Source: Escherichia coli
GTDB taxonomy: Bacteria > Pseudomonadota > Gammaproteobacteria > Enterobacterales > Enterobacteriaceae
DNA length: 43,500 nt
Direction: 5' to 3' (one strand)
Assembly: GCF_003334255.1 (NCBI RefSeq)
Contig: NZ_QOWU01000047.1
Of this stretch, positions 33,462 to 34,508 are shown piece after piece. Made by a program: the position numbers and the translations under genes. The notes beneath the pieces were generated by a model. That model saw only the letters and a list, made by a program, of their open reading frames with translations, had not been told where the DNA came from and did not search any database. How positions within the stretch are numbered: the first letter of the stretch is position 1; every line of letters starts with the position of its first letter.

Positions 33462-34508
33462 ATGCCAGTTTTGCAGTGGGGAATGTTATGTGTGCTATCA
33501 CTTCTCCTTTCTATTGGTTTCCTCGCGGTACATCTCCCGGCGGCGCTATTACTTGGGCCGATGATCGCCGGGATCATCTTTAGTATGCGCGGAATTACTC
33601 TGCAACTTCCCCGCTCTGCTTTTCTCGCCGCCCAGGCCATTCTTGGCTGCATGATTGCGCAAAACCTCACTGGTTCGATTCTCACCACCCTGGCCGTCAA
33701 CTGGCCGATCGTGCTTGCAATTTTACTGGTAACGCTGCTTTCCAGCGCCATTGTGGGTTGGTTATTGGTGCGCTATAGCTCATTGCCTGGAAATACCGGT
33801 GCCTGGGGCTCCTCTCCTGGCGGCGCGGCGGCAATGGTCGCTATGGCGCAAGATTACGGCGCAGATATTCGCCTGGTGGCGTTTATGCAATATCTGCGAG
33901 TGCTGTTCGTCGCGGGGGCCGCTGTTCTGGTCACCCGCATGATGCTGGGCGATAACGCTGAAGCGGTTAACCAGCATATCGTCTGGTTCCCGCCAGTGAG
34001 CATTAATCTCCTGCTTACTATTTTGCTCGCGGTCGTTGCCGGTACAGTGGGATGCCTGCTGCGTCTTCCTTCCGGCACGATGCTCATCCCGATGCTGGCG
34101 GGCGCAGTGCTCCAGTCTGGTCAGCTCATCACCATCGAACTACCGGAATGGCTGCTGGCGATGGCGTATATGGCAATTGGCTGGCGGATTGGTCTTGGTT
34201 TCGATAAACAAATCTTACTGCGGGCACTACGCCCGCTACCGCAAATCCTGCTGTCGATTTTTGCTCTGCTGGCTATTTGTGCGGGTATGGCGTGGGGGCT
34301 GACCCGGTTTATGCACATTGATTTTATGACTGCCTACCTCGCCACCAGCCCCGGCGGGCTTGATACCGTGGCGGTCATCGCCGCAGGGAGCAATGCCGAT
34401 ATGGCGCTCATTATGGCGATGCAAACCCTACGCCTGTTCAGTATTTTGCTGACAGGGCCTGCCATTGCGCGGTTTATTTCAACCTATGCGCCGAAGCGGT
34501 CGGCCTAG
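33462..34508 (+). CDS. abrB: AbrB-family putative membrane transporter/regulator (AbrB duplication family, polytopic membrane protein)
   Basis: Hydrophobic ORF; start set at [12 protein letters not shown] (348 aa) preceded by GAGGGAGCGAAGG Shine-Dalgarno, not the longest ORF. Confidence 0.85.

Follow-up and report, generated by a model that had tools for sequence, protein, structure and literature searches.

The junction of the convergent genes abrB and nei in Escherichia coli is, with a probability of roughly 78%, an ordinary tail-to-tail overlap of 4 bp between two real genes that arose as a by-product of genome history and is not a device. The overlap is of a common type whose class is known, and the pair itself has already been catalogued. 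The window analysed here (the whole stretch of DNA, 43,500 nucleotides of contig NZ_QOWU01000047.1) corresponds, in reverse-complement orientation, to the stretch of E. coli K-12 that runs from ybfD to the lysine/valine tRNA cluster, and shows 99.9% identity to a K-12-like chromosome, with small indels near the tRNA end. Coordinates of the features discussed are collected in Table 1.

Table 1. Features at and around the abrB/nei junction, in window coordinates.
Feature	Position	Strand	Basis
abrB CDS, 348 aa	33462..34508	+	ORF list, PGAP annotation, profile match
nei CDS, 263 aa, endonuclease VIII	34505..35296	-	ORF list, PGAP annotation, profile match
pxpA, pxpC, pxpB and ybgI, upstream of nei on the same strand	35332..38404	-	annotation
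CTAG tetramer containing both stop codons	34505..34508		sequence and ORF reading
abrB stop codon, TAG	34506..34508	+	sequence, ORF list, PGAP annotation
nei stop codon, TAG	34505..34507	-	sequence, ORF list, PGAP annotation
abrB fallback in-frame stop, TAA, if TAG is lost (7 additional sense codons)	34530..34532	+	
nei fallback in-frame stop, TAG, if TAG is lost (6 additional sense codons)	34484..34486	-	
abrB read-through zone, antisense to nei and the start of pxpA	34509..35492	+	weak hairpin and T-run first at 35493
nei-operon read-through zone, antisense to abrB	33205..34504	-	terminator scans

Read directly, the plus strand at 34500-34511 is tcggcCTAGtgc. Both the ORF list and the PGAP annotation give a convergent pair, and the two coding footprints overlap by 4 bp, with T34506 and A34507 (TA) common to the two stop codons. 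The outer bases of the tetramer are also shared, 34505 being the third base of the last sense codon of abrB (GCC) and 34508 the third base of the last sense codon of nei (CAC). The sequence-only reading had placed both stops within one shared CTAG, and these positions were confirmed to the base by the sequence, the open reading frames and the RefSeq annotation; its gene names, abrB and nei, also proved correct by annotation and profile matches.

Both reading frames are genuine up to their annotated stops, as judged by profile matches and conserved C-termini. Nei, which repairs oxidised bases, aligns with the NCBI endonuclease VIII equivalog model over 263 of 263 positions (504.8 bits, cut-off 252) and ends in ...YWCPGCQH with the stop immediately after. 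AbrB, whose gene was named as an 'aidB regulator' locus, gives two matches to the 'membrane protein AbrB duplication' domain (TIGR03082) that reach residue 339 of 348, and because of this match it is assigned to the Gneg_AbrB_dup family and predicted to be a membrane protein, although RefSeq names it 'AbrB family transcriptional regulator'. Across 20 genomes in which abrB lies next to nei, both proteins keep the length and sequence of their C-terminal peptides: Nei ends in ...CPxCQ(H/K/R) with the stop at once, and AbrB ends 8 to 13 residues past a conserved ARFIS motif. In the literature, nei figures as the terminal gene of an operon (title of Gifford and Wallace, 2000).

An annotation or sequencing artefact, with one of the stops really lying elsewhere, is effectively refuted; no point in its support was found. 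Re-annotation, which the sequence-only reading had named as the place where a different stop might emerge, gives the same stops in eight independent E. coli genomes. The identical 4-bp overlap stands in the NCBI PGAP annotation of a K-12-like genome (100% identity across the 2.1-kb junction stretch) and in the RefSeq annotation of six further E. coli strains, and the published MG1655 coordinates contain it as well (745158-745949 and 745946-746992; tables of PMC7373196). The end-to-end match of Nei to its equivalog model and the conserved C-terminal peptides of both proteins also speak against an artefact.

Disruption of the locus was seen in E. coli OkiPb01694, where a P2-like prophage (ogrK, late control D and tail genes; locus L002, 5100-9109) enters about 100 bp before the abrB stop (window ~34408), cuts abrB and separates it from nei. 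About 3 of 5,425 genomes have no full-length match across the nei/abrB region.

Avoidance of CTAG is known for E. coli, and the window fits this pattern: its 43.5 kb hold 6 copies, where base composition predicts 169 and a Markov estimate 32; most other palindromic tetramers occur in 120-300 copies in the same window. The six copies start at 5947, 15421, 18360, 28367, 34505 and 37562, and stop codons lie only in the copy at 34505. TAG is equally sparse as a terminator, ending only 3 of the 37 annotated coding sequences of the window (nei, abrB and sucB). Two TAG stops in one CTAG look striking, yet their geometry is the described and preferred state of convergent overlaps. The length distribution of such overlaps jumps at 4 bp, a jump explained by the four-base sequences CTAA, TTAA, CTAG and TTAG (Lillo and Krakauer, 2007; PMC2174442). 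Each of the four can carry one stop per strand. Counts are taken here from these published statistics, which give 58 convergent overlaps in E. coli under an earlier annotation, with TAG used by 19% of convergently overlapping genes vs 8% of non-overlapping genes (PMC2174442). The abrB/nei junction shares with the 4-bp class its geometry, one of the four named tetramers, within which both stops fall, and TAA or TAG stops in both genes. It differs from the class in nothing of substance, and adds to it the presence of all four tetramers among its variants.

Within the species, the tetramer was counted over 5,426 complete E. coli genomes by exact 30-mers centred on the junction, among genomes sharing a 28-base word across it. 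CTAG is present in at least 4,734 of the 5,426, over four flank haplotypes (3,034 + 431 + 1,133 + 136), and TTAG, which turns the nei stop into TAA and the last abrB codon into GCT, in at least 263. The 4-bp overlap is still annotated in E2865, the one TTAG strain examined. CTAA on the main flank haplotype was found in none of the 5,426 genomes. The six 30-mers together account for all but roughly 430 of the genomes. TTAA was found in one, NZ_CP025268.1 (loci L090 and L091), a K-12 MG1655 derivative from Boston whose AbrB and Nei share their protein accessions with the K-12-like genome. Its sucB gene, too, ends in TAA instead of TAG, which means that all three TAG stops of the region are recoded, and the genome looks like that of an engineered strain without amber stops.

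The CTAG palindrome is therefore not fixed even inside E. coli, and is incidental. The sequence-only reading had put weight on it; that weight was misplaced, since TTAG, CTAA and TTAA fill the same position in other genomes. That CTAG is itself recognised, for instance by a protein or by a repair or recombination system, is highly improbable. In favour of such a role, the strong avoidance of the tetramer in the window makes any retained copy conspicuous. The copy at the junction is retained because a change to its central TA destroys both stops at once. As a conserved site, CTAG is ruled out by the TTAG variant in 263 E. coli genomes and by TTAG, CTAA and TTAA in relatives of the same geometry, and in the engineered-looking K-12 derivative TTAA stands there while both protein accessions stay the same.

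A scan with Nei over one genome per bacterial species yielded 80 Enterobacteriaceae loci. The -4 geometry with a convergent abrB was present in 13 of them (5 GTDB Escherichia species and 8 Citrobacter-like), and these 13 loci use, in abrB orientation, all four legal tetramers (CTAG, TTAG, CTAA and TTAA). Other members of the group have spacers between the two genes, of 6 bp in S. arizonae, 25 bp in C. sedlakii, 54 bp in S. diarizonae (resembling a REP element, as judged by eye) and 75 bp in one C. amalonaticus. Three Citrobacter genomes (L018, L033 and L034; 3846-4706) carry an insert of about 930 bp between nei and abrB, which corresponds to a 286-aa ORF (read in L018). At this position the C. 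freundii complex (L013-L015, L024 and L027; ~3790-4643) lacks abrB and has instead an AraC-like gene of 282 aa that ends 2 nt from the nei stop, with both stops held in TAGATCTA; the AraC-like ORF was read in L013, and the other four loci share the downstream sequence. The -4 state falls into three clades of a rough neighbour-joining nei tree.

The loci without abrB show a different neighbour. There, gltA is convergent to nei in 51 loci, with the two stops at most 120 bp apart in 31, and a strong hairpin followed by a T-run lies within 100 nt of the nei stop in 28 of 60 loci (for example CGGTAACCCGAAGGTTACCG and then TTTTT). The same search found one marginal match among the 13 overlap genomes and none among the 7 spacer genomes. 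An intrinsic terminator between convergent genes, often a bidirectional one, such as that between nei and gltA in Klebsiella, Enterobacter and Lelliottia, occupies the position directly after the nei stop at which E. coli lacks the hairpin and T-run and has abrB coding sequence instead. Where abrB is present without fimbrial genes, nei and gltA are 1.17-1.29 kb apart, a distance consistent with a single gene of 1,047 bp. On the far side of abrB, E. coli and E. albertii also have ybgO, which in K-12 belongs to the ybgD-Q-P-O fimbrial operon. In outgroups, including Erwinia and Pantoea, nei adjoins gltA. Because nei faces gltA in most other Enterobacteriaceae, abrB would be a lineage-specific single-gene insertion, and the simplest reading by parsimony is that the Escherichia/Citrobacter/Salmonella lineage gained it by insertion at the former terminator site.

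Inserts of 0.7-1.9 kb also occur between nei and gltA in Buttiauxella and others, and the position immediately past the nei stop has repeatedly been a target of insertion.

The preferred reading, a by-product of genome history, can be laid out as follows. In an enterobacterial ancestor nei would have faced gltA over a short spacer, often with a hairpin and T-run terminator, and abrB would have arrived at this terminator site in the Escherichia/Citrobacter/Salmonella lineage and butted onto the nei stop. In the resulting zero-spacer state only the two stops and two silent third positions are shared, and for that reason the four legal tetramers interconvert by transitions at 34505 and 34508 with neither protein changed. 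Any indel would damage the stop or the C-terminus of one gene. The geometry would thus be mutationally 'sticky' while its sequence drifts, and this appears enough to explain its persistence without a function. We infer the direction of the evolutionary change, and likewise that any functional effect is weak.

The occurrence of the -4 geometry in three clades could alternatively reflect selection to keep it. That selection has maintained the spacerless junction in Escherichia and in some Citrobacter, coupling the expression of nei and abrB in such a way that transcribing either gene limits the other, is very unlikely; if true, it would mean that the insertion of abrB rewired control of the 3' end of the nei operon.

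The sequence-only reading had also stated that no terminator lies between the genes. None can lie there, and scans past both stops were negative as well: no intrinsic-terminator-like site was found by two scans in 985 nt past the abrB stop on the plus strand, or by two scans in 1,300 nt past the nei stop on the minus strand. With no intrinsic terminator for either unit, each RNA must end inside the partner gene. Rho ends transcripts once their translation has stopped, and is likely the terminating factor for both RNAs. Each RNA would accordingly run into the antisense strand of the partner and be ended there, most likely by Rho acting on untranslated RNA, and low-level complementary 3' ends would be the outcome. 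As expression of both genes is weak, any mutual interference is probably small.

Base composition was considered as further evidence for Rho and dropped. Windows with C in excess of G lie past the abrB stop (~34561-34690 and 34717-34846; C/G up to 2.0 within 400 nt), and modest ones past the nei stop (~34245-34322 and 34141-34218; C/G up to 1.7 within 400 nt). These rut-like stretches are not above the background of the window, in which an equal C>G content occurs in 43% (plus strand) and 36% (minus strand) of random 400-nt stretches. A special RNA structure at the junction was likewise rejected, as folds of about 120 nt on each strand gave z-scores of +1.04 and -0.40 vs shuffles, and no Rfam family was found at the junction, between 33,000 and 36,000.

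Converging polymerases might instead stop and release each other at the junction. Such collision-driven bidirectional termination has a model in E. coli, where convergent pairs are reported with terminators that are neither intrinsic-like nor Rho-needing (Ju et al. 2019, as described in bioRxiv 10.1101/2022.10.23.513370), and nei and abrB resemble these pairs in being convergent without a canonical intrinsic terminator. According to that preprint, the model needs an RNA stem-loop that fixes the site of collision and trailing polymerases that complete release. At nei/abrB there is no significant stem-loop, as shuffled sequence folds equally well, and the expression of both genes is low; collision is accordingly a poor candidate.

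The sequence-only reading had called for strand-specific RNA-seq as a check for antisense read-through, and published data contain reads on both strands of both genes, at low and similar levels. The pair is among the 165 convergent excludons of E. coli MG1655 (ExcludonFinder, 2025; PMC12288877), membership of this excludome being defined by a call in no fewer than 50% of 58 RNA-seq samples from MG1655 (PMC12288877). From the published method, such a listing appears near-automatic for an expressed pair with overlapping coding regions. Overlap of convergent transcripts is moreover common in E. coli, in which 276 of 370 convergent operons (75%) overlap, by a mean of 286 nt (Conway et al., 2014; PMC4161252).

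In wild-type cells, nei has 5.4 RPM sense and 4.1 RPM antisense reads and abrB has 8.2 RPM sense and 2.3 RPM antisense reads, with the sense and antisense labels of both genes uncertain, vs 2,759 RPM sense and 17.7 RPM antisense for gltA (PMC7373196). The uncertainty comes from the strand column of Table S1c of that study, which does not match Table S1b and the true strands for ybgL, abrB, ybgO, ybgP and ybgQ; abrB is '+' in Table S1c and '-' in Table S1b, and its sense and antisense values are possibly swapped. In two rnc mutants (rnc-14 and rnc-38), sense reads go from 5.4 to 3.8 and 4.1 RPM for nei and from 8.2 to 4.2 and 2.4 RPM for abrB, in a single low-count data set (PMC7373196). Double-stranded RNA captured by p19 amounts to 5-21 RPM in nei and abrB vs 136-293 RPM in pxpC and pxpA (PMC7373196), and among the matches listed there is no p19 cluster in MG1655 745,600-746,199, the stretch around the junction.

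These data bear on the suggestion, made from the sequence, that transcriptional interference or mutual antisense regulation is possible. Overlap of the transcripts is indeed reported; there is no sign that the overlap regulates either gene, and no rise when RNase III is lost. A functional convergent excludon, in which the absence of a spacer and of terminators is kept and abrB transcription lowers nei and the reverse, via polymerase interference or RNase III, is unlikely. The junction has the likeness of an excludon, that is, opposite-strand neighbours with overlapping transcripts (PMC12288877; PMC4161252), with the pair named in the list, intrinsic terminators absent on both sides, antisense reads forming a large fraction of sense reads in nei and abrB, and the -4 geometry retained in Escherichia and several Citrobacter. 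What defines an excludon is mutual exclusion, and for nei-abrB the rnc data, from one low-count data set, show no clear effect, with no rise of sense reads of either gene in the two mutants. The p19 signal is low in both genes, with no junction cluster among the matches listed, and at about 2-8 RPM vs 2,759 for gltA encounters between polymerases should be rare. In Salmonella and several Citrobacter this position holds a spacer, an inserted gene or another neighbour, and the excludome listing itself would follow almost automatically from the overlapping coding regions.

Upstream of the junction, sense reads fall about 8-fold from pxpA (40.6 RPM) to nei (5.4 RPM), and p19-captured dsRNA in nei alone is 6-21 RPM (PMC7373196). 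Together with the p19 signal in pxpC and pxpA, this suggests an antisense transcript within pxpC/pxpA (35332-36988) and attenuation before nei. A promoter-like site lies on the plus strand at 34763-34791, inside nei and directed at pxpA.

As one of dozens of convergent overlaps in E. coli, the junction carries little biological weight. It is a textbook case of a geometry that persists while four legal tetramers drift, and the small added value of the analysis lies in the evolutionary picture, with a gene that would have replaced a terminator site and all four tetramers found in nature, and in the joint recoding of the stops. An edit of T34506 or A34507 destroys both stops together. The substitutions C34505T and G34508A each turn one TAG stop into TAA and leave the protein of the partner gene unchanged, and NZ_CP025268.1 carries both. 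Since neither the nei operon nor abrB has its own terminator in E. coli, constructs or deletions that reach the 3' end of one gene will change the 3' untranslated region of the other.

Elsewhere in the window, the lysine/valine tRNA array (1-600) is offset by a repeat unit relative to the K-12-like reference, and window positions 1-18381 align to reference positions 93-18470, with internal repeats. ARAGORN predicted Lys, Val and Lys tRNA genes in 1-600, and Rfam also matched two RtT elements and a tRNA truncated at the end of the window. Further Rfam matches lie at 1513-1651 (-), 18215-18377 (-), 22749-22819 (+) and 40201-40243 (-), and comprise the CpoB/ybgF RNA thermometer (142 bits), naRNA4 (in three copies, of which two only just reach the threshold) and the ES036 small RNA.
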